UHGV virus genome: UHGV-0187309
DNA length: 44,350 nucleotides
From: a virus
Strand: one strand, 5' to 3'
Part shown: positions 1 through 28,582 of the stretch, piece after piece
Numbering within the stretch: position 1 is the first letter of the stretch
Layout of the letters: the number at the start of each line of letters is the position of its first letter
Translations under genes and position numbers: made by a program
The notes under the pieces: model-generated
The model's database searches: none
What the model saw: the letters and a program-made list of their open reading frames with translations, nothing else
Told to the model about the DNA's origin: nothing

Positions 1-344
1 TTACCTTTCTTAGAGATAACAGTGAGGACTCGACACTGCGATAATGATGCAGTTTTTAATCCTAAACCAAATCTTCCAAGGTCATTTGTAGCTCTTATAT
101 CTAATGGATTTCTGCTTCCATATTGCATAGCTTTATCAATTTCAGGTGCATCCATACCGTTACCATTATCTAGCACAGCTATGTAAGCATCACCGACAGG
201 GAAGAAAAATATATCTATATTCTCAGAGCAGGCAGCAATACTATTATCGATAATATCTGCTATTGCTGCATCTAACGTATAACCGATTGCCCTTGTAGAT
301 TCAATCAATGTGGGTGCATATGGCGGTAGTTCTATAGTGTGCAT
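1..344 (-). CDS. GHKL-type ATPase (histidine kinase-like ATPase fold), N-terminal part only; gene runs off the left edge of the window
   Basis: Reverse-strand translation from ATG at 342-344 reads MHTIELPPYAPTLIESTRAIGYTLDAAIADIIDNSIAA...VLDNGNGMD...GRFGLGLK, matching the N-box, G1 and G2 motifs of GHKL ATPases; GGAGGG RBS upstream on minus strand. Not in ORF track because truncated. Confidence 0.55.
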   Translation of the reverse strand, partial: MHTIELPPYAPTLIESTRAIGYTLDAAIADIIDNSIAACSENIDIFFFPVGDAYIAVLDNGNGMDAPEIDKAMQYGSRNPLDIRATNDLGRFGLGLKTASLSQCRVLTVISKKG

Positions 345-400
345 ATTTTCTCCCTCCAGTATAGATATAATTTGCGAACGGGTAAAATACCCCATAATCT

Positions 401-429
401 ACTATACCACAATCTGCTGATTTTTTCAA
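401..429 (-). promoter_or_regulatory. sigma70-like promoter for the GHKL ATPase gene (TTGAAA-17-TATAGT on minus strand)
   Basis: Reverse complement of 401-429 gives TTGAAA, 17 nt spacer, TATAGT, about 55 nt upstream of the ATG at 344. Confidence 0.4.
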
Positions 430-519
430 TACACGATCCGCACTTTTTCAGAAAAAAGTAGGTGTTTTGTTTCCTTTCATTTTGTAAAGAGTTACTTTTT
501 TCTCTTGACAAATCATGAT

Positions 520-573
520 AAGATGCGAAAAACTCTGTGCAAGCATCGGACATCAGTGTCCATTTGCACAGAG
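520..573 (-). terminator. Rho-independent terminator downstream of the HExxH protein gene
   Basis: Perfect 10 bp inverted repeat CTCTGTGCAA / TTGCACAGAG (533-542, 564-573) with a nested GGACA/TGTCC palindrome, followed on the minus strand by a T-run. Confidence 0.55.
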
Positions 574-607
574 TCTTATTCTATGATTTACTTTCTCTAC
601 GGACTTA

Positions 608-1705
608 TCACTCCGAATACTCTCTCGCCATCTCTTTTATCTTCTCAACCATCATATCGCTGATGCAGCTTCCGATCTTCTCTAAAGTGTCCTCGTCCAT
701 CAACCAGAAACCTTTCTTATTAAGGTGTGCATCAAGTATCTTATACATTTTCCACATATGCGGCTGATAACACTCTGGTATATCGCTGATGCAGGTCGGC
801 TCTATGTTTTCATCGGGATAAACGCCGCCATTGATCTTCAGCTTACCCTCGTTAGCGGCATTTACAAATAATATCGTCAGATCGTCTGTGAGCAATTTTG
901 CGAAGTAGTGGGCAAGCGCATACTCATCAATGGTGTGCGAATAGTAGTAAAGCGTTGCTTCAAGAAAATCCTCTAACTGATTTACTATCCCGCCCCATAC
1001 ATCTGTTGTCCAGTCGAGCATTTCCGGATGATAGCTGTCACCGCCGGAGCGAATCGTATAGCTGACATGGTTTGCGATTACTTCTGCGATAAACTCCTGC
1101 CAGAACCAGTAGCCTTCCTGCTTTCGGCGTTCACTGCTGTATCTGCAGCCGTCGATTGCTGCATCATATAAAGGAGAATCATCTATCAGACCGGGTTCAT
1201 TATAACGGTGCAGATCATCTACCTCTGCATTGATAGTGTAGAAATGCCCAAGTTCATGCCAGAAGAAATGTTCAAAATAAACACGCAGCTCGAAGTCGTC
1301 ATGCACAGGCAAGTCTGCCACAAGCTCCCTGCGAATCAGAATCGCATTGCCTTTCTCACCGTGTATGTATTCCATGATGGAGTCAGGCGGTTCCTCTGTA
1401 TGAGGACAGCCGATGCTTTTGATGATCTTCTTTCTTGTCCGGGAATAACTGCTTGCAGTTGAAGTATACACCGGCGGAAACGGAATGCCGAGATCAGGCA
1501 TGATCTGCTCAAACTGCATCTTTGCCATTTCAGCCCAGTAAAGAATCGTTGCTTCGGGTATCGGGCGCGGCTTTGGCAGTTCAGCAGGATGTGCGGTATC
1601 TTCGCCGTTAGTACGCTCGGCAAATTCAAGCATACTCTTTACAAAATCAAGCGGCAAGCCTTTTTCTTCTGCCAGCTTCTGTGCTTCGACTTCAAGTTCA
1701 TTCAT
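608..1705 (-). CDS. Hypothetical protein with HExxH zinc-metallopeptidase-like motif (WHELGH)
   Basis: 365 aa ORF; HELGH motif in FEHFFWHELGHFY; no other recognisable family by eye. Confidence 0.75.
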   Translation of the reverse strand: MNELEVEAQKLAEEKGLPLDFVKSMLEFAERTNGEDTAHPAELPKPRPIPEATILYWAEMAKMQFEQIMPDLGIPFPPVYTSTASSYSRTRKKIIKSIGCPHTEEPPDSIMEYIHGEKGNAILIRRELVADLPVHDDFELRVYFEHFFWHELGHFYTINAEVDDLHRYNEPGLIDDSPLYDAAIDGCRYSSERRKQEGYWFWQEFIAEVIANHVSYTIRSGGDSYHPEMLDWTTDVWGGIVNQLEDFLEATLYYYSHTIDEYALAHYFAKLLTDDLTILFVNAANEGKLKINGGVYPDENIEPTCISDIPECYQPHMWKMYKILDAHLNKKGFWLMDEDTLEKIGSCISDMMVEKIKEMAREYSE

Positions 1706-1851
1706 GCGCTTTACTCCTTGTAAAATAGTACAATAATTTATTTTTTATTATAGCACAATTGCCGCCTGTTTTCAAGCCTTTAGAGAGCGTTTTCATATAA
1801 AAACTCAGGCTCTGTGAGAAGACACTATACCTCTCACAGAGCCTCTATTCA

Positions 1852-2487
1852 TTATACAGCCTTTTCCATCACTACCTCAGTCAAAGCCCTCTTGCATATC
1901 TCAGCAGGATTCCCGTTCGGCTTTATCCAGCTTTCAACGTCCTCTCTACTCAGTATCACCGGCATTCGGTCGTGGATGCTTCTCAGTTCCTCGGTTGCGT
2001 CCCGTGTGATTACCGCAAACACCGGGCAATTAACTCCGTTTCTCTCCTCGATCCTATACAACAGCCCAGCAAGCAGCGTAGATTCGGCTCCTTTCGGCTG
2101 TATCAGGTATTTATCGCCAACCTTCTTCTTTTTCCCGTCCGGACTCCTGAAATGCTCCCATTCAAAGTACCAACTGCTCGGAATTACGCATCTACTTCGG
2201 AACCATGAGTCCTTCCACATTTCCTTCTGGTCAGCCGTTTCGAGGCGGCAGTTCACGATTGGAGCATCGGTCGCGTCATGACTGAAACCCCAGAGCATCG
2301 GAAAAACTTCCATTCTTCCGTCCTTATTCGGTGCTAAAACCGCAGCAACATCAGTCGGACGCAGTTCACCGGACATAAACAGCGGTTTGCCGAGTTTTAC
2401 CATGATAGTATTCGCTAGCTCCAGTTTCTGTGCCCGTGTGATCAGCGGAGCGAACTGAGCAGGCTCTACATAGAAGCGTGTACACAT
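1852..2487 (-). CDS. SOS-response-associated peptidase (SRAP / YedK / HMCES-like, DUF159) abasic-site processing protein
   Basis: 211 aa; N-terminal MCTRF with Cys2 (catalytic Cys of SRAP family), overall SRAP-like length and motif pattern. Confidence 0.8.
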   Translation of the reverse strand: MCTRFYVEPAQFAPLITRAQKLELANTIMVKLGKPLFMSGELRPTDVAAVLAPNKDGRMEVFPMLWGFSHDATDAPIVNCRLETADQKEMWKDSWFRSRCVIPSSWYFEWEHFRSPDGKKKKVGDKYLIQPKGAESTLLAGLLYRIEERNGVNCPVFAVITRDATEELRSIHDRMPVILSREDVESWIKPNGNPAEICKRALTEVVMEKAV

Positions 2488-2501
2488 AAGACCACGACCT
2501 T

Positions 2502-3059
2502 TCAGCCTTCGATCATTCTCAGCTTATAGTGTTTTCGGCAGAGTGCTGTATAACTCTCATTACCGCCGAGCTGTACCTGTTCTCCCTCTGTGACCATTTC
2601 ACCGTTCAGGAGTCTTGCATTGAAGTGCGCTCTTTTGCCGCACCAGCAGATGGTCTTGATCTGCTCAATATCGTCTGCAAGCTCCATGAGCCGCTGTGCG
2701 CCGGGAAACAGATGACTCTGGAAGTCTGTCCGCAGGCCGTAGCAGATAACTGTGATGCCATGAAAATCCACAAGATCACTGAGCTTGTCTATCATTTCAG
2801 GTGACAGGAACTGCACCTCGTCAACGATGATACAGTCATAATGCTCACCATTATAGTCAGCAAGGAAGTTTTCAGCAAACTCGCAGGGTTCTTCAAGTCC
2901 GATGCGGGATTTTAGGTTCTTCGCACCGTCCCTGTCCTCGCATCTCGGCTTCAGCAGAAGCACTTTTTTGTCTCTCTCATAGTAGTTATATCGAACCATA
3001 AGCGCATTGGCGGTCTTGGAGCTGCCCATTGCGCCGTATCTGAATATCAGTTTTGCCAT
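2502..3059 (-). CDS. tdk: Thymidine kinase
   Basis: 185 aa; P-loop YGAMGSSKT, IIVDEVQF Walker B, C-terminal Cys cluster (CWCG...C) typical of type II thymidine kinases. Confidence 0.9.
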   Translation of the reverse strand: MAKLIFRYGAMGSSKTANALMVRYNYYERDKKVLLLKPRCEDRDGAKNLKSRIGLEEPCEFAENFLADYNGEHYDCIIVDEVQFLSPEMIDKLSDLVDFHGITVICYGLRTDFQSHLFPGAQRLMELADDIEQIKTICWCGKRAHFNARLLNGEMVTEGEQVQLGGNESYTALCRKHYKLRMIEG

Positions 3060-4369: not shown

Positions 4370-6298
4370 ATGACTATATATCTTGATAGAGGACCGTTTC
4401 TCACCATTCCCGACAAGCTGCATTCGGGGCAGTACAGAGTGATCCGCAACCCCGACTGGCACGGAGTACTGCCGGAGATCGTGTCCTTCACCGATTTTCT
4501 CAAATGGAATTACACACTGGAGTATGGTCAGTATATCCGCAAATTGCACTACTACCACCAGCTTCCGCTGCCGTGGGTCGTTCCACAGGATGCCGAGATA
4601 GAAACTGTCATCATCGAGGAAGGCAGATATGACCGCATTGATCACAATTCCTTTGATATGTATGTGATATGCGATGTCGTGTTCGAGATGAACGGCTGCC
4701 GGCAGTGCCAGAAGTATATCGTACACGGCTTTTACTGCTCTTACGGCGGTTCAGACTTTCTGTGCGGTGCGGAGCTCTACAATGGTCAGTTTATCCGGCT
4801 GAACAATCCCTTAGATGAGTTTCTGGTTCCCATCCTTTCAAAGAAAGAATTTGCAAGCATTGCACAAGCAATCATCGACCACTACTATTCATACAAATCG
4901 AATTATCCCTGCCGCATCAATACTGCTTCAATTGCAAAGGCAATGGGTCACGATATAAAGTATGCCAGACTGTCAAAAAACGGAAATGTCAAGTCCAAGC
5001 TGATCCTGGACAAGCGGGATACGACCGTCTATGATAAGGAATACAAAGCTGTCAAAATGCGGATCGACAGTCCTACGATCCTTGTGGACGAGTCATTGGA
5101 GGAGGATGAAGCGCAGAACGCCATTATTCATGAGTGCGTTCACGCTTACCTTCACAACCTCTTCTATGAGCTGCAGAGCTACTATCGGAAAATGGTCGGC
5201 AGGAAGATGCCGGAGTTCAATGACTACTTCTATTCCAAGACGCAGCGTAGCTGCCTGAAATGGATGGAAACACAGGCAAATGCCATCCCACGCTTTATTC
5301 AGATGCCGGAGGAGCAGGCATCCGATGTCATCCTGAACTTCTTCGAGCGACTCCCCGGAGAGCCTGACTGGGACGATTACAGAGAACTGATCGACCTTGT
5401 GAAATGGAAGTTCGGAGTATCCCGCAATGCTGCGAAGAAGCGTATCATTGAGCTTGGCTGGCCGGAGGTGCGCGGTGTGTATGTCTACAACACCACAGGA
5501 TATGTTGAGGACTACGATGTAGAGCTAAGATTCCCGCAGGACTATACCTATACACTGTCATTCCGCCAAATCTCTGATGTGTTTGCATCCTGCGAGACCT
5601 TCGCAGAGCTTGTCCGTTCCAAGAAGTTCATCTATCTGGACGGTCATGTTGTGATCAACAGCGACAGGTATATCCGCAAGGAACACGGCTTAGCTATGGG
5701 CTTGACAGAGTATGCTAGACACCACATGGCAGAGTGCTGTCTGGATTTCAAGCGTATCTACGCAGAATTCGACTACAGCTATACCTATGGCGAGCTACAC
5801 AAGGATGACCTGACCGAGATCACGGCCGAAAACCGTTCGTTCAGCGATGAACAGCGAAAGAAGATCCGCATGGCAATGTATGAGATCACAGAAGAAAACT
5901 ATAAACTGACCGTTCCTTCAGATGTCAACGAATTCGGCAAGGCGGTGCGTTTCCATATGGAGAGATGCGGTCTCACCTCGGATCTGGTTGCAGACCGCAG
6001 CGGCATGGGTGTGAACACTGTCAATAAGATGCGCAGTGGCAAGAGAGTGAAGCTCGAAACAGTGCTAGCTTTTTGTGTCGCTTTGGAGCTTGAAGAGTCG
6101 TTCCGCATTGACCTTATGCAGAAAGCGAAGGTTGATTATGATATGAGCAATCCTGCCCATCGGCTCTATGTCACGATCTTTGAGCTGATGCCGAAGGCAA
6201 ATGTCTTTCAGATCAACGATCTGCTGAAGGCAGAAGGCTTTACGCCGTGGACGAGGGACTGCGAGGAAAAGAAGCGGTATGCTAAGAAAAGTATGTAA
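4370..6298 (+). CDS. Large ImmA/IrrE-like HExxH metallopeptidase-domain protein with C-terminal XRE-type HTH
   Basis: 642 aa; HExxH in IIHECVHAYLH; C-terminal HTH-like segment RSGMGVNTVNKMRSGKRVKLETVLAFCVALEL; AGGAGGG RBS. Confidence 0.8.
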   Translation: MTIYLDRGPFLTIPDKLHSGQYRVIRNPDWHGVLPEIVSFTDFLKWNYTLEYGQYIRKLHYYHQLPLPWVVPQDAEIETVIIEEGRYDRIDHNSFDMYVICDVVFEMNGCRQCQKYIVHGFYCSYGGSDFLCGAELYNGQFIRLNNPLDEFLVPILSKKEFASIAQAIIDHYYSYKSNYPCRINTASIAKAMGHDIKYARLSKNGNVKSKLILDKRDTTVYDKEYKAVKMRIDSPTILVDESLEEDEAQNAIIHECVHAYLHNLFYELQSYYRKMVGRKMPEFNDYFYSKTQRSCLKWMETQANAIPRFIQMPEEQASDVILNFFERLPGEPDWDDYRELIDLVKWKFGVSRNAAKKRIIELGWPEVRGVYVYNTTGYVEDYDVELRFPQDYTYTLSFRQISDVFASCETFAELVRSKKFIYLDGHVVINSDRYIRKEHGLAMGLTEYARHHMAECCLDFKRIYAEFDYSYTYGELHKDDLTEITAENRSFSDEQRKKIRMAMYEITEENYKLTVPSDVNEFGKAVRFHMERCGLTSDLVADRSGMGVNTVNKMRSGKRVKLETVLAFCVALELEESFRIDLMQKAKVDYDMSNPAHRLYVTIFELMPKANVFQINDLLKAEGFTPWTRDCEEKKRYAKKSM

Positions 6299-10601: not shown

Positions 10602-13487
10602 GTGGTGATTTTATTGAGCAGACGTGTACTTTCCATCGACTTAGAGACCTATTCGGATGTAGACCTCCCGAACTGCGGTGTGTACCGCTATGTTGAGGGA
10701 GATTTCCATATCCTGCTGTTCGCATATGCATTTGACGATGAGGAGACAAAATGCGTGGATATGGCCTGCGGGGAGCAGCTCCCGGCAGAGGTCGTGGATG
10801 CGCTGCAGGATGACAGTATTATCAAATCGGCATGGAACGCACAGTTTGAGCGTACCTGCCTTTCAAAATATCTCGGTACGCAGATTTCTCCGGACTCGTG
10901 GCAATGCACGATGGTATGGGCGGCATCGCTTTCACTTCCGCTGAAGCTGGCAACGGCTGCACAGGCACTGAAAACTGCACAGCAGAAGGACGCTGTCGGT
11001 GAGCGTCTTATCCGTTATTTCTCTCTGCCCTGTAAGCCCACCAAAGCAAACGGCGGCAGAACAAGAAATCTGCCGGAACACGCCCCCGAAGACTGGAAGC
11101 TGTTCAAAAGCTACTGCATACAGGACGTGGAAACCGAGCGGGATATCCGCCGCAGGCTTGAAAAGTTCCCCCTGCTCCCGCAGGAATGGGACTACTACCA
11201 CATGGATCAGCGGATCAATGATCGCGGTATCCTGATCGACAAAGAGCTTGTGCAGCAGGCTATTATCTGCAATATGGCAATGTCCGAAGAAATGACAAAA
11301 CGTGCATACGCTCTGACAGGACTTGAAAATCCGAATTCCGTATCACAGCTCAAGGGATGGCTTGAGGAGCGTGGCATTGAGGTGGATTCCCTCGGCAAAA
11401 AGAATGTCGCTTCTCTTATCACAGACCTCGACAGGCACAGCGCAGACGGTGAGGCTCTGGATATGATGAAGCTGCGGTTGCAGATGGCAAAGTCCTCTGT
11501 GAAAAAGTATCAGGCGGCAGAGAGATACATCTGTCAGGACGGCAGGGCGCACGGACTGTTTCAGTTTTCCGGAGCTCAGCGAACACAGCGCTGGTGTCTT
11601 ACCGGCGATCATGAAATACTGACAGATAAAGGCTGGCTCAGGCTTGATAATTGGCAGGGCGGTAAGATTGCTTGTTGGAATCCTAATCAGGAAATGGTCT
11701 CGTTCCAGAAAGCGAACGTATTGTGCTTTGAATATGACGGTCCTATCTACCGCTATGAGGACAAACGGATCGATCAGATCAGCACGCCGGATCACAAAAT
11801 GCGTGTAAAGAAACGGTATAACGGCGAGTGGACGGATGACACTGTTGGCAATATGGAAAAGTATCGTCCTTCTATTCCGTTTACCGGACGCAGACAAACG
11901 ATGCCCGGCTTGGAGCACGCAGAACTGAGGGTACTGGTGATGACGCAGGCTGACGGCAGCTATAAAGAAGATGGAATGCTCTGCTTCCATTTCAAGAAGA
12001 AAAGGAAAATAGAACGGTGCAAACATCTGCTCAGACAGGCGGGCATTTATTTCACAGTGAATGAATGCAGGACAGATGGAACAACGCAGATCAAGATTCC
12101 TTCCCGTGAGCAGCCGATGTATCTAAGAATGTTTCATAACAAGACATTTGGAATGTGGCTTCTCGATGAAAGCCCGGATGTTTTCTTTGATGAGCTTCGG
12201 TATTGGGACGGATCGCAAAGCGCCAAAAACAGTATCCAATATACCACAACGAACAAAGTGAATGCCGATATTGTTCAGGCTTTTGCTCATACAAGTGGTC
12301 GCTGTGCAAAAATGAAAACGGTCATCCGGGATAAAGAACACCCGAATTGGAGCGATGCATACTATCTCGATATATGGCTCACTCCGAAAAACTGTCATGA
12401 AATCAGAGTGAAGCCGACTATCTCGCAATTCAGCGGCAAAATATACTGTGCTGAAACCCCAACCGGATACTTCCTTGTAAGACGTAATGGTAAAGTGTGG
12501 GTAACAGGAAACAGCGGGCGCGGCATTCAATTACAGAACCTGCCGCAGAACCACATCTCTACCCTCGATGAAGCAAGAGAACTTGTCAAAATGGGCTGCT
12601 TTGACATGATCGAAGCACTGTACGGCAATACGCCGGATATCCTGTCACAGCTTATCCGCACGATGCTCATTCCGAAGGACGGCTGTGAATTTATCGTGGC
12701 AGACTTCTCCGCCATTGAAGCGAGAGTACTTGCGTGGCTTGCCGGAGAACAGTGGCGGCTCGATGCCTTCAAGCGTGGCGAGGATATTTACTGTGCATCC
12801 GCATCGCAAATGTTCGGTGTTCCGGTCGTGAAGCACGGCATCAATGGAGAACTGCGGCAGAAAGGCAAGGTCGCTGAGCTTGCCTGTGGTTACGGAGGTG
12901 GCAGCGGTGCGCTGATCTCTATGGGTGCGCTGGATATGGGACTGAAAGAGGATGAACTTCCCGACATCATTTCAAGCTGGCGCGATGCAAACCCGGAGAT
13001 CGTGAAATTCTGGTATGCCGTGGAGAAAGCGGCGATCGAAACAGTCAAGGACCACGCGGAAAGAACGGTCGGCAGGATCGGTTTTCAGTTCTCTGCAAAT
13101 ACACTGTGGATCGTGCTGCCGTCCGGGCGCAGACTTGCCTACATCAAGCCGAGGTTACAGCCGAACCGTTTCGGGCGTATGGCGCTGACCTTTGAAGGAC
13201 TCGGTGCAAACAACAAATGGACGCGCGGTGAGACATACAGCGGCAAGCTGACGGAGAACATCACACAGGCGACCGCCCGTGACCTGCTTGCAGAGGCAAT
13301 GCACCGAATGGAGCTTGCGGGACTTGACATAGTCGGTCATGTGCATGATGAGGTCATTTTGGAAGTGCCGAAAAGACAATATACGGTCGATGATGTGTGC
13401 AATATCATGAATCAAAATCCGAGATGGGCAGACGGTCTGCCCTTATCATCTGCCGGATATACCGGCAATTACTACTTCAAAGACTGA
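10602..13487 (+). CDS. Family A DNA polymerase (3'-5' exonuclease plus polymerase domains) interrupted by an intein
   Basis: N-terminal LSIDLETYS exonuclease motif; after conceptual intein removal RTQRW|SGRGIQLQNLPQN resembles the PolA TGRLSSxxPNLQNIP motif; downstream HVHDEV motif C. Confidence 0.85.
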   Translation: MVILLSRRVLSIDLETYSDVDLPNCGVYRYVEGDFHILLFAYAFDDEETKCVDMACGEQLPAEVVDALQDDSIIKSAWNAQFERTCLSKYLGTQISPDSWQCTMVWAASLSLPLKLATAAQALKTAQQKDAVGERLIRYFSLPCKPTKANGGRTRNLPEHAPEDWKLFKSYCIQDVETERDIRRRLEKFPLLPQEWDYYHMDQRINDRGILIDKELVQQAIICNMAMSEEMTKRAYALTGLENPNSVSQLKGWLEERGIEVDSLGKKNVASLITDLDRHSADGEALDMMKLRLQMAKSSVKKYQAAERYICQDGRAHGLFQFSGAQRTQRWCLTGDHEILTDKGWLRLDNWQGGKIACWNPNQEMVSFQKANVLCFEYDGPIYRYEDKRIDQISTPDHKMRVKKRYNGEWTDDTVGNMEKYRPSIPFTGRRQTMPGLEHAELRVLVMTQADGSYKEDGMLCFHFKKKRKIERCKHLLRQAGIYFTVNECRTDGTTQIKIPSREQPMYLRMFHNKTFGMWLLDESPDVFFDELRYWDGSQSAKNSIQYTTTNKVNADIVQAFAHTSGRCAKMKTVIRDKEHPNWSDAYYLDIWLTPKNCHEIRVKPTISQFSGKIYCAETPTGYFLVRRNGKVWVTGNSGRGIQLQNLPQNHISTLDEARELVKMGCFDMIEALYGNTPDILSQLIRTMLIPKDGCEFIVADFSAIEARVLAWLAGEQWRLDAFKRGEDIYCASASQMFGVPVVKHGINGELRQKGKVAELACGYGGGSGALISMGALDMGLKEDELPDIISSWRDANPEIVKFWYAVEKAAIETVKDHAERTVGRIGFQFSANTLWIVLPSGRRLAYIKPRLQPNRFGRMALTFEGLGANNKWTRGETYSGKLTENITQATARDLLAEAMHRMELAGLDIVGHVHDEVILEVPKRQYTVDDVCNIMNQNPRWADGLPLSSAGYTGNYYFKD
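11595..12512 (+). mobile_element. Intein (about 306 aa) within the DNA polymerase
   Basis: Begins CLTGDHEILT (block A-like), ends YFLVRRNGKVWVTGN followed by Ser as +1 residue (block F/G-like); flanking exteins rejoin into a conserved polymerase motif. Confidence 0.65.
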
Positions 13488-13500
13488 GGAGGATATTCTT

Positions 13501-14550
13501 ATGAAACAGGGACGAGCATTACCGGAAGTGCTGACAGAGCTTCAGAGACAGAATGCAGCAAAGCAGGATTATATTGGCACGGCAGAGGCGTTCCGTCTGG
13601 ACGAGGACGGCAGCACCTTCCGGATCGGTGACGATCACAGCTTTGGTACCACACAGCTTTTCCATCGTCAGGTGGCATCGGCACTCGGCATTCCGGCGAA
13701 GTATTACGACATGATGCAGAAACAGAAGCCTGACCTTCTGGCAGACAATGTGAATGCATGGTTCAGTGACAAGGGCAGCAGCTACATGGTGCGTACCCTT
13801 GATTACGGCAGCGGACAGGTTGCGAGAGCCTTTCTGTCTGACCGTTACCGCCGTATCGATAACCTTGAAATTGCCTCGGCTGTTCTCCCGATTTTCGCCG
13901 GACAGGAAGGCATGGAGGTCATGAGCTGCGAGGTCACAGAGAATAAGCTGTATCTGAAGATCGTCAATCACCGTCTGGAAATGGCGTGTGTCGGTGACCG
14001 TGTGCAGGCAGGTGTCATCATCTCCAATTCGGAGGTTGGACTCGGTGCTGTGTCTGTTCAGCCGCTTGTCTATACACTTGCCTGCACCAACGGCATGGTG
14101 GTCAACAGTATGGGCGAACGCCGTACCCATGTCGGCAGGGCGGCGAAAGCACTGGAAGACAGCTTCAATATCTACACAAATGAAACCCTCGAAGCCGAAG
14201 ATAAGGCATTCATGCTGAAGCTCCGTGATACCACAATGGCAGCAATTGAAGAGGCTCGTTTCGCACAGATCATCGGTGTGTTGGAGCAGAGCCACGGCGC
14301 AAAGATCACAGGACGTGTGCAGGATGTCATCGAACTGACCGGCAAGGCGTATGACCTGAATCAGTCGGAACAGGACAGCATTCTGAACTATCTCATCAAG
14401 GGCGGCGATCTTTCCCTCTATGGTCTGAGCAATGCCATCACACGCGCTTCGCAGGATGTAGATTCCTACGACAGAGCCACTGCGTTAGAGGGCATCGGCT
14501 GGCAGGTGGCGACCATGCCTGCAAATCAGTGGAAGGAGATCAACGCATGA
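13501..14550 (+). CDS. Hypothetical phage protein (possibly DUF932-like)
   Basis: 349 aa, GAGGAGGA RBS; family assignment is from memory only. Confidence 0.75.
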   Translation: MKQGRALPEVLTELQRQNAAKQDYIGTAEAFRLDEDGSTFRIGDDHSFGTTQLFHRQVASALGIPAKYYDMMQKQKPDLLADNVNAWFSDKGSSYMVRTLDYGSGQVARAFLSDRYRRIDNLEIASAVLPIFAGQEGMEVMSCEVTENKLYLKIVNHRLEMACVGDRVQAGVIISNSEVGLGAVSVQPLVYTLACTNGMVVNSMGERRTHVGRAAKALEDSFNIYTNETLEAEDKAFMLKLRDTTMAAIEEARFAQIIGVLEQSHGAKITGRVQDVIELTGKAYDLNQSEQDSILNYLIKGGDLSLYGLSNAITRASQDVDSYDRATALEGIGWQVATMPANQWKEINA

Positions 14551-14780
14551 GCAGAACCTGGAAAGACAGAAAAGGATATAAAACACGCAGAAAACGACAC
14601 GGATATCCTGTGCCGGAGATCTGCAATTACACACGCGGCAGCTATGAAGATTATGACCACAGCGATGAGGAACTGTATGTCGATGACCAGTGCTGCGAGA
14701 ACTGCCGCTTTTGCGGATGTTGCCGTCATACACCGTTCCCGTCGGGCTGGTGCGAATACTGGAAGGACGGCACACATTGA
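14547..14780 (+). CDS. Small Cys-rich protein (putative zinc-binding)
   Basis: 77 aa from ATG 14547 overlapping previous stop; CCENCRFCGCCRH...WCEYW Cys cluster; GGAAGGAG RBS. Confidence 0.5.
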   Translation: MSRTWKDRKGYKTRRKRHGYPVPEICNYTRGSYEDYDHSDEELYVDDQCCENCRFCGCCRHTPFPSGWCEYWKDGTH

Positions 14781-15217
14781 GAGAATATGTTGTCGAAAAC
14801 GAGTTTGTCAAGGCGGTAAAAGCGGCAGGCGGTGTGGCATACAAGCTGACATCGCAGACCGCAAACGGACTGCCGGACAGACTCGTTCTGTTCCCGGCGG
14901 CAAAGACGATTTTCGTGGAGCTGAAAGCACCGGGGAAAATGATGCGACCGTTGCAGCGTAAAAGACGGTATCAGCTTATGAAACTCGGCTTTCCGGTGCT
15001 GTGCATTGACAGGATGCCGCAGATCAAGCCGTTCATATCAGCAGCATTGTCATGGACACCCGGTGAGCCGTTCCCGGAAGGCATCGGTGCGAAGATACCC
15101 GATCTGGAAAGGGCAACGCTGCCGACGGATATGGATAACTTCGGGGAAACGCTTGAACCCATCGATCCAGACAATCTGATAGAGTTTTATGAAATAGAGG
15201 ACGGTGATGATGCATGA
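14777..15217 (+). CDS. VRR-NUC domain nuclease
   Basis: ENEFVKAVKAAGGVAYKL...GLPDRLVLFP...FVELKAPGK pattern typical of VRR-NUC; likely TTG start at 14777 after GGAAGGACGG. Confidence 0.7.
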   Translation: MREYVVENEFVKAVKAAGGVAYKLTSQTANGLPDRLVLFPAAKTIFVELKAPGKMMRPLQRKRRYQLMKLGFPVLCIDRMPQIKPFISAALSWTPGEPFPEGIGAKIPDLERATLPTDMDNFGETLEPIDPDNLIEFYEIEDGDDA

Positions 15218-15711
15218 TTAACCCTAAACGCAGAGCTGTGAGAAAAAGCTGCTCATACTGCGGAACTGTCTTTACCTATGTCGGAAGTCATGGTACAAGA
15301 AATAAGCATTTTTTCTGTTCTCATGAATGCTATATTGCCTTTAAGACAAAGAAAGCAGAAGTGAAATGCGATTGGTGCGGCAAATCAATGCTGAAAAAAC
15401 GCTCTGATATATGGAGAACGGATCACAATTTCTGCTGCCCCGAATGCTGTTTACTGTATAGGCAAAAGCAAGGCGAAACTTCATGGAATCATCGTGTGAA
15501 TGGAATAACCGTACACAGGGGCATTTTGGAGAAGAAGCTCGGACGAGAACTGCGTGCGGATGAAGAAGTACACCTTATCGATGGTAACCATTTCAATAAT
15601 GATCCGGACAATCTCATCGCCCTTTCCAAATCGGAACACGCCAAAATTCATTCTTCTTGGAAAGCGAGGGACGAGTATGGAAAATACGTTAAAACGCAGT
15701 CAGATTCATGA
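15214..15711 (+). CDS. HNH homing-type endonuclease
   Basis: 165 aa; multiple CxxC pairs plus HLIDGNHFNNDPDNLIALSKSEHAKIH HNH motif. Confidence 0.85.
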   Translation: MINPKRRAVRKSCSYCGTVFTYVGSHGTRNKHFFCSHECYIAFKTKKAEVKCDWCGKSMLKKRSDIWRTDHNFCCPECCLLYRQKQGETSWNHRVNGITVHRGILEKKLGRELRADEEVHLIDGNHFNNDPDNLIALSKSEHAKIHSSWKARDEYGKYVKTQSDS

Positions 15712-17059
15712 ATACCAAAAATACTGTGTTGACTTTATTAAGTCTCATCCCGTATCAGCACTCTTTTTGGATTGCGGACTTGGAAAGACGATCATTTCAT
15801 TGACTGCAATATATGATCTAATGTTTGATGAGCTGAAGGTATCTAAAGTTCTTGTAATTGCCCCTCTAAGAGTGACAAATGTCTGGAAAGCGGAGGTTCA
15901 GAAATGGAGTCATCTGCAAGATGTTGATGTTGCGATAGTAGTCGGAACTGTAAAACAGCGGATTGCTGCGATTAACAGTAACGCTCTTGTTTACGCTGTC
16001 AACCGTGAAAATGTGAAGTGGCTCGTAGAGTATTACGAGAAGAACGGTCTTCGCTGGGATTACGATATGATCGTCATTGACGAGCTGAGTTCCTTCAAAA
16101 ACTACCAGTCACAGCGGTTCAAATGGTTGCGTAAGGTTCGGCCTTTCGTGAAGCGCTGGGTAGGATTGACAGGAACGCCGACTTCCAACGGTCTCATGGA
16201 CCTGTGGGCAGAGATCGGTATCCTTGACGGCGGTGAGCGGCTCGGACGGTTTATAGGCAGATTTCGTGAAAGCTATTTCAAGCCTGCGTCCATGAATCCG
16301 TCAACCGGTGTTGTTTTCAGCTACACCCCACGTCCCGTCGCAGAGGAGCAGATCTATAACAAAATCTCCGACATTACGATTTCCATGAAGGCACTGGATT
16401 ATCTGGATATGCCGGAATGTATCTTCGTCAATCATGAGGTCGAGATGAATGCAGCAGAGCGAAAACTATACGATCAGCTGAAACAGGATCTTATCATTCC
16501 GCTTGAGGACGGAGATATCGATGCTGCCAACGCTGCCTCTCTCTCCAACAAGCTGCTCCAGATGGCTAACGGCGCGGTCTATGACGAAAACAAGGAAGCC
16601 CGAATCATTCACAGCCGGAAACTGGAAATGCTGGAAGACCTGATCGAAGCCGCAAACGGACAGCCTGTTCTGGTCGGCTACTGGTTCAAGCATGACCGCA
16701 CTCGCATCATGGAGCATCTAACCGCCTGCGGTTACAGCCCTCGTGATATAAAGGATTCCGCCGACATCACAGACTGGAACGCCGGAAACATCCCGGTCGC
16801 TCTTATACACCCCGCTTCGGCAGGACACGGTCTGAACATTCAGTCCGGTGGCCATATCATGATCTGGTTCGGTCTGACATGGAGCTTAGAGCTTTATCAG
16901 CAGACAAATGCGCGTTTGTGGAGGCAGGGACAGAAGCACACTGTCACGATCCACCACATCGTAACAAAAGACAGTGTCGATGAGGATGTGCTTGCTGCTT
17001 TGGCCAATAAGGATGTAACACAGGAGAAATTGATCGCCGCTGTCAAGGCGAGATTATAG
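15677..17059 (+). CDS. SNF2-family (DEAD/DEAH-box type) helicase
   Basis: LDCGLGKT Walker A, VIDELSSFKN DExx box, C-terminal helicase motifs; commonly paired with VRR-NUC in phages. Confidence 0.85.
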   Translation: MENTLKRSQIHEYQKYCVDFIKSHPVSALFLDCGLGKTIISLTAIYDLMFDELKVSKVLVIAPLRVTNVWKAEVQKWSHLQDVDVAIVVGTVKQRIAAINSNALVYAVNRENVKWLVEYYEKNGLRWDYDMIVIDELSSFKNYQSQRFKWLRKVRPFVKRWVGLTGTPTSNGLMDLWAEIGILDGGERLGRFIGRFRESYFKPASMNPSTGVVFSYTPRPVAEEQIYNKISDITISMKALDYLDMPECIFVNHEVEMNAAERKLYDQLKQDLIIPLEDGDIDAANAASLSNKLLQMANGAVYDENKEARIIHSRKLEMLEDLIEAANGQPVLVGYWFKHDRTRIMEHLTACGYSPRDIKDSADITDWNAGNIPVALIHPASAGHGLNIQSGGHIMIWFGLTWSLELYQQTNARLWRQGQKHTVTIHHIVTKDSVDEDVLAALANKDVTQEKLIAAVKARL

Positions 17060-17144
17060 GATCATACTCTCCGTATGATCCGCACTGAAAAGACGACAAA
17101 GCGGCGACAAAACGGTTACACCGCACTCTATGGAGGTGAAAACT

Positions 17145-17648
17145 ATGGCGCGTAAGAACAAACGCCTGAAAACAGAATACCACAGAGGTCTCGGTTTTGA
17201 TCCGCGAAAGTATATGACTTCCTACTCCCACCAAACTCGCTGTGAATCAATTCCGACTCCCGACCGTGCTCCAAAGCGCGGCGATATCTGGTTTGCGCGG
17301 CTCGGCACACATCCGAATTCCAGTGTGCAGGGCGGCACCCGTCCCGTTATCATCATTTCTAACGACCTCGGCAACGAACACGCTGACACCGTCAATGTTG
17401 TGCCGATGACCAGACACCTGAAAAAGCCGGAGCTGCCTTGTCACACTCCGCTTTCTCCCGGCAGCATTACCGATAGCAGACAGCCGCTTGAACTGTCAAT
17501 GGTGCTGGCGGAGCAGCTCACAACTGTCAGCAAGAACGCACTTCGCTATTATGCAGGTCATATTTCCGATGACGAAGCTATGAACCGCATCGAAACCGCT
17601 GTTATTGCGCAGCTCAGTCTTGAAAGGAGATATTCCAAATGCCTGTGA
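17145..17648 (+). CDS. MazF/PemK-like endoribonuclease-fold protein with ~45 aa N-terminal extension
   Basis: KRGDIWFARLGTHPNSSVQGGTRPVIIISNDLGNEHADTVNVVPMT matches the PemK/MazF core pattern (GDIW...G.EQ.G.RPV.V.S...N....V.V.P.T); GGAGGTGA RBS. Confidence 0.65.
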   Translation: MARKNKRLKTEYHRGLGFDPRKYMTSYSHQTRCESIPTPDRAPKRGDIWFARLGTHPNSSVQGGTRPVIIISNDLGNEHADTVNVVPMTRHLKKPELPCHTPLSPGSITDSRQPLELSMVLAEQLTTVSKNALRYYAGHISDDEAMNRIETAVIAQLSLERRYSKCL

Positions 17649-20068
17649 ATTTTGTCAATATCCCAGATGTTCTGAAGCAGACCGCTTCTTTCTGTGTCTG
17701 GAAGCTGGAAAAGAGATCCGGCAGACCGACCAAAGTACCGTATAACCCTCGCACCGGTGCAATGGCGAGAACCAACGATCCGTCTACCTTTGCAGACTTC
17801 AATACAGCAATGAAATCCTATGCCATCGGCGGATGGGACGGTATCGGCTATCGTGTCAGCGAAGGCATCGGTGCAATCGACATCGACCACTGCATCCGTG
17901 AGGACGGCAGTCTCAATGATGTTGCAGCATCCATTCTCGGTATCTTCCCCGATGCGTACTTTGAGCGCAGCCCCTCTGGTACCGGCTTGCGCGGCTTTTT
18001 TCGCCTTTCTCCTGATTTCGCCTACGATAAGACTGTGTACTACATCAACAACCGAAAGCACGGTCTGGAGGTCTATCTTCCCGGTGTGACGAACCGCTTT
18101 GTGACTGTTACAGGAGATATGTTCCGCAATGGTGCAGTTACCCGAAATGACGGTTCCCTGCGCACACTACTTGATACCTTCATGAAGCGCAGCACCCGTG
18201 TATCTTCCAAGACTGTCGAGCCTGTGTCCTATCTCGATGATGACGGTGTTATCGCTCACGCATCGGCATCTGAATCCGGCGACAAGTTCAAAGCACTGTA
18301 TGCCGGTAACTGGGAGGAAGGCTACGATTCCCAGTCCGATGCAGATATGGCGCTTGTGTCTATCCTTGCATTCTGGTGCGGTAATGTCGAGGAGCAGATC
18401 GACCGTATCTTCCGAACTTCCGGTCTGATGCGTGATAAGTGGGATCGTATGACCGGAGACAGAACTTACGGACAGATCACGATCCGCAATGCTGTCGCTA
18501 CCAATTCCGCTGTCTATACACCGATTCAGGATTCTACGGCAGAAGATGACTTTGACGATATCGAGGGCGATGCGGAAAATGAGCAGCTTATGTTTGAGCC
18601 TGATCTCACCCATGTTTCCCTGACGCTGGAAGAAATGCAGCCGCACACGAATCCCCGCTATCAGCGTGACGAGATCGGCATCGGATATGCATTTGCGGAT
18701 TATTATAAGCCCATCGCTCGTTTTGACCGTGAGCGCGGCATCTGGTATGTCTTTGACGGGAAGGTGTGGCAGCCGGACGAGAATGCGCTTGCCGTGGCGG
18801 AGCTTGCAAAGCGTCTGGCAGACAGGCTGTATACCTTTGCCCTTCAGATCAAGGATGAGGACACACGCAACCGCTATATCAAGCGAGTGCAGAAGCTGCA
18901 AATGCGGAAGAACCGCCGCACCATGATCGAAGATGCGAAATCCGTGTATCCAGTGCCGCACGCTATCTTTGACCGCAATACCTACCTTTTCAACTGTCAG
19001 AACGGGACACTGAACCTCACCACAGGTGAATTCCGTCCGCACGATCCGGCAGACTTTCTCACCATGATGTCCGGTGTCACTTATGATCCGAACGCCACCT
19101 GTCCACGATGGGAGCAGTTCATTTCCGAAGTTATGTGTAATGATGCTGACCTCGCATTATACTTGCAAAAAGCCCTCGGATATGCGCTTACCGGCGACAC
19201 ATCACTGGAATGCCTGTTCATCCTCTACGGTGCAACATCCAGAAACGGCAAAGGCACCACAATGGAGACCTTTCTCAAAATCATGGGCGACTACGGCAAA
19301 ACCTCCAATCCGGAGATGCTGTCTACGAAATTCGGCAACACCAATGCTTCCGGACCGTCCGAAGAGATCGCCCGGCTTGCGGGTGTCCGTTTTGTCAATA
19401 TCTCCGAGCCGGAGAAGAAGATCACCTTCAATGCGGCACTGGTAAAGCGTATGACGGGTAATGATACACTGAATGCACGTTTCCTGCATGAGAATTCCTT
19501 CGACTTCCGACCGAATTTCAAGATCTTCATCAATACGAATTACAAACCGTCCGTTTCTGATATGACACTGTTTTACTCCAACCGTCTGAAGCTCATTCCG
19601 TTCAAACGCCATTTTGAGGAGCATGAGCAGGACAAAGGTCTGAAAGCATTTTTCAGTACGTATGTCTGCCTCTCTGCCATCTTCAACTGGTGCTATGAAG
19701 GATATAAGCGGTTCCGTTCCGAAGATCTGGAAGATCCGGCTGCTGTATCTCAAGCAACCAAGGAGTATCAGGAGGAGTCTGACCGTATCGGGCAGTTTGT
19801 GGATGCGTGGCTCGAAGAAGGCGAAGCATTTGAAGTCCGTACCTCTGCGGCATATAAGCTGTACGGTGAATGGTGCGATAAATATGGCTACCGCAAGGAA
19901 AACAGCACCAACTTCAATAACGCGATCCAGCGTTTCTTCCCCATCGTGCGTAAGCGCCCGAACGATACTAAGGGTGCGCAGAAAACAACGATGCTTGTGG
20001 GCTGTCGTTTTCTGGAGCATGAAAACGGCGAAGCTGACGAACCAGAGGAGTTTGCAGCTTTGGAGTAA
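17639..20068 (+). CDS. Phage/plasmid primase (prim-pol N-terminal domain plus D5-like SF3 helicase region)
   Basis: 809 aa; Walker A YGATSRNGKGT, primase C-terminal region, typical phage replication-module position. Confidence 0.85.
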   Translation: MPVNFVNIPDVLKQTASFCVWKLEKRSGRPTKVPYNPRTGAMARTNDPSTFADFNTAMKSYAIGGWDGIGYRVSEGIGAIDIDHCIREDGSLNDVAASILGIFPDAYFERSPSGTGLRGFFRLSPDFAYDKTVYYINNRKHGLEVYLPGVTNRFVTVTGDMFRNGAVTRNDGSLRTLLDTFMKRSTRVSSKTVEPVSYLDDDGVIAHASASESGDKFKALYAGNWEEGYDSQSDADMALVSILAFWCGNVEEQIDRIFRTSGLMRDKWDRMTGDRTYGQITIRNAVATNSAVYTPIQDSTAEDDFDDIEGDAENEQLMFEPDLTHVSLTLEEMQPHTNPRYQRDEIGIGYAFADYYKPIARFDRERGIWYVFDGKVWQPDENALAVAELAKRLADRLYTFALQIKDEDTRNRYIKRVQKLQMRKNRRTMIEDAKSVYPVPHAIFDRNTYLFNCQNGTLNLTTGEFRPHDPADFLTMMSGVTYDPNATCPRWEQFISEVMCNDADLALYLQKALGYALTGDTSLECLFILYGATSRNGKGTTMETFLKIMGDYGKTSNPEMLSTKFGNTNASGPSEEIARLAGVRFVNISEPEKKITFNAALVKRMTGNDTLNARFLHENSFDFRPNFKIFINTNYKPSVSDMTLFYSNRLKLIPFKRHFEEHEQDKGLKAFFSTYVCLSAIFNWCYEGYKRFRSEDLEDPAAVSQATKEYQEESDRIGQFVDAWLEEGEAFEVRTSAAYKLYGEWCDKYGYRKENSTNFNNAIQRFFPIVRKRPNDTKGAQKTTMLVGCRFLEHENGEADEPEEFAALE

Positions 20069-20374
20069 AAGTAGACTTTTCTCCGTATTTACGCTGTTTT
20101 CCGCAGTTGGGGCAGCGTGGGGCAAGTTTTTTCGGTGGTTATTATTATTACTTCTCTTTATATATATTACTATTTTTACTTGCCCCTACTTGCCCCAAAT
20201 AAATAAAAACAATAGAAAAGATAAGAAGAATAGAGGATTTTCACTGATTTGAACCATTACCCATTTTGCACTGTTTTGAACCTTGCCCGATGCTGTCACT
20301 GACAAAGAGTGTGTAAGCGACAAAGCGTGGCAAGGTCAAAATCCAATAAACAATCATACAGGAGGAACACGAAT

Positions 20375-21469
20375 ATGAGAATCATTACTTCAGAACAGGT
20401 ATCCGCAGGACATCCCGACAAGATCTGTGACCAAATCGCGGATGCCATCGTGACAGACTGCCTTCAGCATGACCGCAGCAGTCGTGTTGCGATAGAGTGT
20501 CTTTTCAAGAACCGCTGTCTTGTGATCGCCGGTGAGCTGACCAGTACCCATGAGCCGGACTACAAGGCTCTGGTGCAGCAGGTGTTCGACCGTATCAACA
20601 ACGGCGGAGCTGAGAACAGCGATGCGGGACTTGACTACAAGCTGGACTTCACCGCCGATGATCTGGACATTGCGATTCTGGTCGATCACCAGAGCAATGA
20701 CATTGCGCTCGGTGTGAATGTCGGCGGTGCAGGAGATCAGGGTATGATGTACGGCTATGCGACCAACGAAACGCCGGAGATGCTCCCGATCCCCTTCGTG
20801 CTGGCTACCAGATTTCTGGAACTGCTGAAAGCCTACCCCTGCCGTATGCTGAAAGCCGATGCAAAGGCACAGGTCAGCTATGACTATGACAGCGGTCGCA
20901 TTACCACCTTCCTCTGCTCGGTGCAGCATACACACGATGTGGATGTTGAGGACTTCAAGCCCATCATCGAAAAGCTGATGGTGAGAACGGCAACCGAATA
21001 CGGGCTGAATACAGACTTTGCAAAGCTCGTCAACCCGACCGGCAGATTTGTCATAGGCAGTTCCTTTGCGGACTGCGGCGTTACCGGACGCAAGCTCGCC
21101 TGCGATACCTATGGCGGTATCGGGCATATCGGCGGCGGTGCAATGTCCGGCAAAGATCCGTCTAAGGTTGACCGCAGCGGCGCATATGCAGCAAGAAAAA
21201 TCGCAAGGGATATCGTCAGCGCCGGATATTCAGACAAGGCAGAGGTGCAGATCGCATACGCCATCGGTGTGGCAGAGCCCGTATCCGTGTATGTAGAGAC
21301 TTTTGGCACGGAGCATCAGGATACGGAGTTCATCAACCAGTATGTTCGTGAGAATTATGACCTCACGCCGAGGGGAATCATCGAAGGGCTGCATCTGCTC
21401 GATGTGGACTATAACGCCATTTCCGCATACGGACACTTCGGAAAACAGAACCTTCCGTGGGAACTATAA
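20375..21469 (+). CDS. metK: S-adenosylmethionine synthetase
   Basis: GHPDKICDQIADAI, GGGAMSGKDPSKVDRSGAYAAR and overall MetK architecture; AGGAGGA RBS. Confidence 0.9.
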   Translation: MRIITSEQVSAGHPDKICDQIADAIVTDCLQHDRSSRVAIECLFKNRCLVIAGELTSTHEPDYKALVQQVFDRINNGGAENSDAGLDYKLDFTADDLDIAILVDHQSNDIALGVNVGGAGDQGMMYGYATNETPEMLPIPFVLATRFLELLKAYPCRMLKADAKAQVSYDYDSGRITTFLCSVQHTHDVDVEDFKPIIEKLMVRTATEYGLNTDFAKLVNPTGRFVIGSSFADCGVTGRKLACDTYGGIGHIGGGAMSGKDPSKVDRSGAYAARKIARDIVSAGYSDKAEVQIAYAIGVAEPVSVYVETFGTEHQDTEFINQYVRENYDLTPRGIIEGLHLLDVDYNAISAYGHFGKQNLPWEL

Positions 21470-22932: not shown

Positions 22933-23389
22933 TGCGATACAGCTTGACAGCGGTGCAGAGGTCATGTACGGCAGCGATCAGATCTATGACACCTACCCCT
23001 GCCGCTTTCCGACTGTCGAGTTCCAGCTCATGGCAACGGATGCACTTGCGGAGGTCGCAGACCGCATCCGAATGGAGAAAGGCTATCTCCCGATGCATCC
23101 GAGGGACGGGCGCACGGACGATGTTGACAATGACGGCTGGTACGACTTTTATATCGGGATTAGCAAGCTCCCCAGCGATCATAAGGAATGCAAACTTGAC
23201 AGCAGCATTAGTTTCGTGGTCGTCAATTCAGATTCCGATGACAACGAGGATATGTACAGCATTGACCTGACTGAAACAGAGCAGGCGTATGTGTATGAAA
23301 TACTGAACCGGCAATGCCGGAGATATCACGGGAAGGACTGTGCCACGCTTCTGGCAGAGTCTGAAAAGGAGCTGATGGATACAGCATGA
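22904..23389 (+). CDS. Hypothetical protein
   Basis: 161 aa from ATG 22904 with CAGGAGGAAA RBS; stop overlaps nrdD start. Confidence 0.65.
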   Translation: MTLTENFIRDAIQLDSGAEVMYGSDQIYDTYPCRFPTVEFQLMATDALAEVADRIRMEKGYLPMHPRDGRTDDVDNDGWYDFYIGISKLPSDHKECKLDSSISFVVVNSDSDDNEDMYSIDLTETEQAYVYEILNRQCRRYHGKDCATLLAESEKELMDTA

Positions 23390-25991: not shown

Positions 25992-26305
25992 GAGCCAGAC
26001 TGAAACCGCCGGGAGATGCTGTCCGCTGCGATGCCTGCGGATGTGCCTTTGTGCCGGAGCCGAAAATGCAGCGTGAGGGAGAGATCGAATACAGCTTCCT
26101 CAACTGTGATTACTGTGGCAAAGCGTATATCGTGTCTGTGACCGATGCCGCACTCCGCCGGAGCATCCGCAAGTACCGGACGCTTGCCGAAAAGCTGAAG
26201 GGCAAGCCGTTGAGTGAAGATACGCTCCGTGAGGTCACGGCGCTGAAGGATGCGAACACAAAAAGAGCCGCAGAGCTGCGGCAGATGTATATTCGGGAGG
26301 GATGA
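25988..26305 (+). CDS. Small zinc-ribbon hypothetical protein
   Basis: CDACGC...CDYCG Cys4; translationally coupled between nrdG and the methyltransferase. Confidence 0.6.
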   Translation: MRARLKPPGDAVRCDACGCAFVPEPKMQREGEIEYSFLNCDYCGKAYIVSVTDAALRRSIRKYRTLAEKLKGKPLSEDTLREVTALKDANTKRAAELRQMYIREG

Positions 26306-26306
26306 G

Positions 26307-28350: not shown

Positions 28351-28582
28351 ATGTGCGGTCGTGACCGCTTACACAGAGATTTCTATGCTCAAGGGCGACG
28401 ATCTGAAATATCTGTATGACTATCTTTCCGGCTTTATCGGCAGACCGGTGTATACACACGAGATTTCTGCTGTGGTGATGGCTTACAGAGAGCAGATCAG
28501 GGAGGACTTCCTCGATCTGTGCAGGAACGCAAAGGAGGCGGATGATGGATCAGAAACACTTGACTCTCGGCAGCTTATTTGA
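28337..28582 (+). CDS. Small hypothetical protein
   Basis: 81 aa ORF from ATG 28337; overlaps both neighbouring genes; no recognisable motif. Confidence 0.45.
   Translation: MTKHECAVVTAYTEISMLKGDDLKYLYDYLSGFIGRPVYTHEISAVVMAYREQIREDFLDLCRNAKEADDGSETLDSRQLI

Follow-up and report, generated by a model that had tools for sequence, protein, structure and literature searches.

The MZA system, encoded by mzaABCDE and named for MutL, Z1 and AIPR, reportedly goes back to Gao et al. 2020 and was described from Salmonella and E. coli. Restriction of T4 has been shown for the E. coli mzaABCDE operon, along with DNA cleavage in vitro by its purified MzaD (bioRxiv 10.1101/2022.06.16.496414); MzaA is a small, sigma-factor-like protein, and mzaA is found in only few of the related systems (PMC9523054). 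Operons that join a paraMORC GHKL ATPase to an SFII helicase, a RE-fold nuclease and DCM/AIPR components have been predicted to be restriction-modification (R-M) systems (Iyer, Abhiman and Aravind 2008, PMC2292703), and an MzaA-less, dcm-coupled variant is implicit in that 2008 analysis and has previously been noted in Listeria. In the R-M systems CglI and NgoAVII cleavage is activated by ATP-driven dsDNA translocation (PMC5861437, PMC4267653), with Z1 constituting the second RecA-like lobe of the dsDNA-translocating motor in CglI (PMC5861437).

In this study, we analysed a gene fragment at the left edge of a 44,350-nt stretch of viral DNA, referred to as the window, which is, judged from its sequence, the start of mzaB in an MzaA-less, dcm-linked member of the known MZA/paraMORC restriction-like family. 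Sequence to the left of the window could be obtained from ENA contig ERZ27262483:k119_75777 (82,189 nt; L009), which was found via the identity of a 365-aa protein. L009 1-11705 corresponds to window 11705-1 at 100% identity with zero mismatches or gaps, so that by arithmetic the window is the reverse complement of positions 1-44350 of ERZ27262483:k119_75777. Since L009 reads on beyond this point, with 11706-21098 as the true continuation, the left edge of the window is an arbitrary cut. A contig break at an A-tract was rejected as explanation for the edge, as L009 crosses it uninterrupted and the sequence here is AAGAAA and not a homopolymer. Exact-match scans with window-specific and conserved 26-42-mers gave no match in viral_contigs or genome_contigs, and matches in the metagenome scan were limited to the relatives L006 and L007.

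On the extended sequence, mzaB opens a translationally coupled five-gene operon, mzaB-mzaC-mzaD-mzaE-dcm. The mzaB-like GHKL ATPase gene (486 aa, minus strand in the window, Pfam HATPase_c_3) is followed in L009, on the mzaB strand, by genes for an mzaC-like Z1 motor (918 aa, Pfam Z1), an mzaD-like nuclease (310 aa, Pfam DUF4420, PD-(D/E)XK) and an mzaE-like AIPR protein (693 aa, Pfam AIPR_N+AIPR), and finally by the gene for a Dcm-type C5 methyltransferase (550 aa, Pfam DNA_methylase, PF00145). The junctions comprise an ATGA overlap between mzaB and mzaC, 8-nt overlaps between mzaC and mzaD and between mzaE and the methyltransferase gene, and one 12-nt gap with its own GGAG; no strong internal terminator was found within the mzaB-dcm operon. 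The preliminary description had taken the gene to be stand-alone, which does not hold, the gene being separate solely from the transcription units of its upstream neighbours; its suggestion that the gene might open a defence system extending leftwards out of the window is borne out by the MzaB/C/D/E and C5 methyltransferase genes of L009.

Within the window, the 5' part of mzaB occupies positions 1..344 on the minus strand (codons 1-114 of 486 plus 2 nt), starting with an ATG at 344-342 and with a frame that is open as far as window position 1. This amounts to 23% of the gene, with the remainder located at L009 11706-12822. Already this fragment of 114 codons matches Pfam HATPase_c_3 at E=1.6e-25 (90.2 bits against a cut-off of 25), PADLOC MzaB at 1e-35 and NCBIfam NF041932 ('MZA anti-phage system associated ATPase MzaB') at 2.5e-37. 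The N-box, G1 and G2 motifs that had been noticed beforehand are all present, which together with the Pfam score above gathering assigns the product to the GHKL/Bergerat fold. From alignment to human MORC2, the N-box was located at D30-x3-N34, corresponding to MORC2 E35/N39, G1 at D59-x-G61-x-G63 and G2 at G90-x2-G93-x-G95-K97, and these residues are invariant in 43/43 full-length MzaB-like homologues. This includes D30 (window 255-257), an Asp at the position of the catalytic general-base Glu of the N-box (MORC2 E35, MutL E29). The dN/dS of the 114 codons versus relatives is 0.02-0.05, so the fragment belongs to a real coding gene, which is under purifying selection. A homologue search with the 114-aa fragment returned matches that were all short and mostly edge-cut proteins; the MzaB-type family comprises at least 8,000 clusters.

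For the complete proteins, the PADLOC MzaA-E models and the NCBIfam models NF041932-35 with their equivalog cut-offs were used. The 486-aa MzaB matches PADLOC MzaB at 2.2e-92 over profile positions 7-490 of 500 and NF041932 at 3.3e-110 over positions 1-478 of 480, with 368.7 bits against a cut-off of 850. For MzaC the matches are 9.2e-121 (PADLOC) and 2e-148 (NCBIfam, 495.8 bits versus 1500), for MzaD 3.2e-20 and 9.1e-30 (103.9 bits versus 420) and for MzaE 9.2e-74 and 7.8e-96 (321.9 bits versus 1050). The profiles of both collections align end to end with all four proteins, and the NCBIfam scores reach about 25-43% of the equivalog cut-offs, all four lying below; being so far under these cut-offs, the proteins are homologues, not equivalogs, of the enterobacterial prototypes, and the putative anti-phage function is extrapolated from these distant prototypes. 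The methyltransferase matches TIGR00675 (dcm) with 177.6 bits against a cut-off of 100.65 and PADLOC MTase_II at 2.3e-127. Neither the 365-aa ORF, the sigma-70-like protein of the phage nor other nearby products matched an MzaA model of PADLOC or NCBIfam, and the sigma-70-like gene was thus rejected as a substitute for mzaA. The locus is a real but ordinary new addition to the known MZA family.

In comparison to MZA of Salmonella and E. coli, the four core proteins (GHKL, Z1, DUF4420 PD-(D/E)XK and AIPR) are found in the same order and on the same strand, whereas mzaA is missing here and the Dcm-type methyltransferase is translationally coupled as a fifth gene; furthermore, the host is here a Firmicutes-type anaerobe, and the cassette lies within a temperate phage or at its edge. 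Like the paraMORC/MORC operons, the locus joins an ATPase of putative GHKL+S5 type to a helicase-like motor, to a nuclease of the PD-(D/E)XK kind, to a cytosine methylase and to AIPR; Vsr (in the relative L022) and the sporadic, laterally mobile occurrence of the operons are shared as well. That study (PMC2292703) was computational only, and MzaB could not be matched to a particular one of its subfamilies paraMORC1-5. The combination of a DEAD-Z1 motor, a nuclease on a subunit of its own and a methyltransferase is also that of CglI and NgoAVII (PMC5861437, PMC4267653), yet CglI consists of three genes without GHKL ATPase and without AIPR, and MzaC is, with 918 aa, much larger.

The AF2 model of a 94%-identical MzaB homologue has a moderate mean pLDDT of 65.7 and is poor over residues 270-360; the transducer domain is poorly resolved because the model is only moderate. 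The best fold matches obtained with Foldseek, at E~1e-11, are the ATPase modules of MORC3, MutL-NTD, MORC2, TRAP1 and SMCHD1; the alignments to MORC3, MutL-NTD and MORC2 extend over 350-440 columns of a model with pLDDT below 50 at residues 275-362. The Bergerat-fold motifs of MzaB align with those of the MORC2/MORC3 and MutL N-terminal modules, whereas identity to these proteins is 13-17% and the catalytic Glu is replaced by Asp. In contrast to MORC2 and MORC3, MzaB carries neither a CW zinc finger nor a coiled coil, and unlike MutL it has neither a C-terminal endonuclease nor a dimerisation domain. By sequence, the solved relatives of MzaB in the PDB are MORC2 and MORC3 only (E~1e-3), and PDB sequence searches gave no solved homologue of MzaC, MzaD or MzaE.

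Upstream of mzaB, a Shine-Dalgarno element GGAGGGAG, which is kept in relatives, was read from the sequence at 350..357 (minus strand), 5 nt 5' of the ATG. It is preceded at 401..429 on the same strand by the sigma-70-type promoter-like site TTGAAA-17-TATAGT with a TGn extended -10, which matches 10/12 positions plus TG, bearing in mind that such matches are commonplace (10 observed at 9/12 or better versus 5.1 by chance). The pattern (TTGAAA, TGnTATA[G/A]T) is kept in the window and in L001, L007, L023 and L019, in the presence of three differing upstream contexts, and the hexamers are kept across the upstream contexts compared, with exception of the most divergent one. This conservation despite differing upstream DNA is what argues most strongly for a promoter that is part of the cassette. 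Transcription of mzaB would accordingly start near 394, with a 5' UTR of about 50 nt. Just 5' of the -35 hexamer, the repeat search located an A/T palindrome without strand, ACTTTTT-N4-AAAAAGT (442..459), which could serve as UP element or operator or mark a recombination boundary. Further upstream, an intrinsic-terminator-like hairpin with U-tract was found by folding and repeat search at 529..577 (minus strand), beginning 30 nt past the stop of the 365-aa ORF, which it closes, and identical in L006. It features a 14-bp stem (577-564/542-529) with an inner hairpin followed by UUUUUCG, with a centroid energy of -25.1 kcal/mol and a minimum free energy of -25.3 kcal/mol (z=-3.0, 0/200 shuffles as stable), and is predicted to insulate the mzaB promoter from the 365-aa gene. 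Both the promoter and the strong terminator of the preliminary description are therefore found again, as is the insulation; the supposed upstream operon, in contrast, turned out to be the single 365-aa gene with its own promoter-like site. An Rfam scan of window 1-2000 gave no family at gathering score.

The window is phage DNA, encoding exonuclease, PolA, helicase, primase, NrdD, three methyltransferases, TerS and TerL, and the phage is a temperate one from gut or rumen with a Ruminococcus/Oscillospiraceae-type host. PolA (961 aa, 10602-13487, plus strand) and TerL (888 aa, 40371-43037, plus strand) are unusually long, and their extra segments, matching PhoH/ribonucleotide-reductase-like and DnaC-like PHROGs, suggest inteins or inserted domains. 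The anaerobic ribonucleotide reductase NrdD is located at 23386-25527, and the phage methyltransferases within 26250-31145 (plus strand) include a ParB-methyltransferase fusion (442 aa) and an 867-aa methyltransferase. The lysogeny module lies in the left part of the window, so that the position of mzaB beside prophage lysogeny genes, as noted before, could be confirmed. It holds an HTH-S24 repressor (3955-3065, minus strand) and a divergent ImmA-like/HTH gene; directly behind the repressor, thymidine kinase (TK) and SRAP (SOS-response-associated peptidase/abasic-site crosslinking) are encoded at 1852-3059 (minus strand), followed by the SRAP terminator (1844-1807), the 365-aa ORF and MZA. Thymidine kinase and SRAP keep 74-91% amino acid identity even in combination with a different repressor (L026). 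The 365-aa ORF (608-1705, minus strand, promoter-like site at 1775-1747 and terminator at 577-529) is a separate transcription unit inserted between the SRAP terminator and the mzaB promoter, and is confined to the window lineage (L006, L009-L018), being absent in L001, L007, L023 and L026. It carries a HELGH (HExxH) motif and could be another accessory or defence-related gene; it matched no Pfam, PADLOC or NCBIfam family, and its single-sequence AF2 model was uninformative (pLDDT 36).

The cassette measures about 9 kb from promoter to methyltransferase stop. Homology between contexts covers L009 11257-20253, starting about 105 nt 5' of the mzaB ATG (window ~449-457), where the palindrome coincides with the boundary, and stopping about 14 nt 3' of the methyltransferase stop. 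These sharp boundaries hold in at least four genomic contexts, the flanks differing in L019, L022, L023 and L020, and no flanking repeats or recombinase were identified at them. In L019 the cassette is found behind an HTH/AAA_25 pair, in L022 it resides in an integrase-bearing island of an Oscillospiraceae MAG with Vsr, AAA_15 and DarT-Macro, in L023, a human-gut relative of the phage, the same lysogeny module and MZA are followed by host polysaccharide genes, and in L020, from the window lineage, by small ORFs, a NUDIX gene and dockerin/CHAP proteins. The cassette is thus modular and mobile, and the sharp boundaries in four unrelated contexts suggest that it moves as a unit. The complete order of repressor, TK, SRAP, 365-aa ORF, MZA and dcm recurs in at least seven other assemblies at 95-99.99% identity; in the distant relatives L001, L007 and L023 (75-83% nucleotide identity) the SRAP terminator abuts the mzaB promoter because the 365-aa gene is missing. 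Seven IMG/VR viral contigs encode MzaB at 60-96% identity, usually outermost on a phage lysogeny arm. MzaC-E follow in five of these seven, among them L026; L029 ends right after mzaB, and in L030 MzaC-E were undetected after MzaB. In a 96%-identical viral contig, L033 (IMG/VR UViG_3300010270_000164), genes for a PT-HINT polymorphic-toxin-like protein of 667 aa and for an HD-domain protein follow the cassette at 11189-13857; what lies past the methyltransferase is variable cargo or host sequence. Among deposited phage genomes, matches consisted of three unannotated metagenomic fragments only, at 33-40% identity.

We propose a model in which the cassette, P-mzaB-mzaC-mzaD-mzaE-dcm, is a self-contained, R-M-like defence cassette that occupies the outer end of a temperate phage's lysogeny arm, a reading we consider likely. 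In this model the Dcm-type C5 methyltransferase would mark resident DNA as self, the DEAD-Z1 motor MzaC would translocate along unmarked DNA, like the Z1 motor subunit of CglI, and the putative GHKL+transducer module of MzaB would dimerise upon ATP binding and thereby clamp or loop DNA, as MutL and MORC do, while MzaD, the PD-(D/E)XK nuclease, would make the cut; MzaE (AIPR) is assigned no step. With its own constitutive-looking promoter, and being read in the direction of the repressor, the cassette would be expressed in the lysogen, where its activity would protect the lysogen and the prophage against other phages. Expression in the lysogen, discrimination of self from non-self by methylation and this division of labour among the proteins are predictions of the model. 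The tight coupling of the methyltransferase to mzaBCDE is directly visible in the operon, and its role would be a protective one; since E. coli MZA is active with no associated methyltransferase described, self-protection by methylation is something that we infer for the locus presented here.

Several other readings have to be weighed against this model. That the gene encodes a stand-alone or housekeeping GHKL protein such as MutL, a GyrB-like protein or a histidine kinase, with no part in defence, has practically no probability left: the mutL model does match weakly (E 6e-06 to 5e-03), as does HATPase_c, but the mutL score (TIGR00585) of 22.8 bits against a cut-off of 180 is not that of a canonical MutL, HATPase_c stays at 20.4 versus a gathering score of 26.4, and no HisKA was found in the full-length relative, so it is not a histidine kinase either. 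The sole Pfam call of the 486-aa protein is HATPase_c_3, with neither a MutL C-terminal domain nor a HisKA domain, and the translational coupling of mzaB to the Z1, DUF4420 and AIPR genes in L009 refutes this reading altogether. A different question is to whom the cassette belongs. No integrase or att site was found between repressor and cassette or just beyond, 10 further window ORFs included no integrase, and searches of the window, L009, L020, L019 and L001 gave no tRNA; we therefore infer phage carriage from the conserved linkage with changing outer flanks, and the cassette is probably carried by the phage rather than by the host. If it were instead part of a defence island of the host chromosome, the prophage would end beside it, at the SRAP or the 365-aa gene, and the missing integrase and att site, the host-like DNA past the methyltransferase in L020 and L023 and the occurrence of the cassette outside this phage family, in the integrase-bearing island of L022 and in L019, would fit. 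We regard this as unlikely, as phages with the same TK-SRAP arm hold the cassette in the same place while the outer DNA differs (L009/L020 versus L023), L026 combines a repressor of 28% identity with the same TK-SRAP-MZA block, IMG/VR classes seven such contigs as viral, and the cassette shares its direction with the lysogeny genes, with no junction feature between them.

The phage-linked cassette might also work in a way that is not based on methylation, in which case the methyltransferase gene would be independent, with a role in anti-restriction or epigenetics, and MzaB-E an infection sensor with an abortive or DNA-degrading output via AIPR and the nuclease. AIPR proteins are named for abortive infection, MzaE also matches PADLOC AbiU (6e-24), the phage already has three other methyltransferases, and activity of E. 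coli mzaABCDE was reported with the methyltransferase unmentioned (bioRxiv 10.1101/2022.06.16.496414), making this possible but rather unlikely. It is at odds with the overlap of methyltransferase start and mzaE stop, with the location of this gene inside the cassette boundaries in 4/4 contexts, with the Vsr gene after the methyltransferase in L022 and with DCM linkage being the rule in paraMORC operons (PMC2292703); moreover, E. coli MZA cells showed no growth arrest upon infection, and MzaD cut DNA directly (bioRxiv 10.1101/2022.06.16.496414). The integrity of the cassette has to be considered as well. Five independent metagenome assemblies (L001-L005, five samples) carry an A7 tract in mzaB (L001 4233-4239), where the intact relatives L007, L019 and L023-26 have A6 and the window lineage AAGAAA, and the resulting frameshift splits mzaB into ORFs of 134 and 352 aa while mzaC-E remain intact; the site, codons 111-114, is precisely where the window ends. 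In L006, a 96%-identical relative, mzaD (5005-5686) is split, compared to L009, by a change of A6 to A5 and a 2-nt deletion beside another A tract. From such frameshifts in close relatives it follows that the cassette is not always kept intact, and the tract changes in mzaB and mzaD may represent phase variation, decay or assembly error, the A7 in mzaB possibly slip-strand switching or a fixed pseudogene. That the cassette is a decaying, non-functional remnant in this genome as well is nevertheless very improbable, given five full-length ORFs in L009 and at least seven near-identical assemblies, the dN/dS of the mzaB fragment and its intact promoter and RBS. More speculatively, and in our view doubtful, the 9-kb MZA-dcm block could be autonomous, exchangeable superinfection-exclusion cargo of temperate Oscillospiraceae/Ruminococcus phages, toggled by slippage at the poly-A tracts of mzaB (A6/A7) and mzaD. 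If true, this would amount to a phase-variable phage-borne immunity, with the methyltransferase on while restriction is off.

Returning to the R-M-like defence cassette as the preferred reading, current views are not overturned by this locus, since the carriage of defence systems by prophages is already accepted, as are paraMORC-DCM operons. For annotation, the gene labelled merely 'ATP-binding protein' in public sources can now be correctly named as the start of mzaB. For the family, the locus means that MZA circulates among Firmicutes of gut and rumen in the form of a compact cassette that brings its own promoter and dcm and often adjoins the lysogeny genes of temperate phages. Such a natural MzaA-less, methyltransferase-coupled version could help to test MZA as a true restriction-modification machine.
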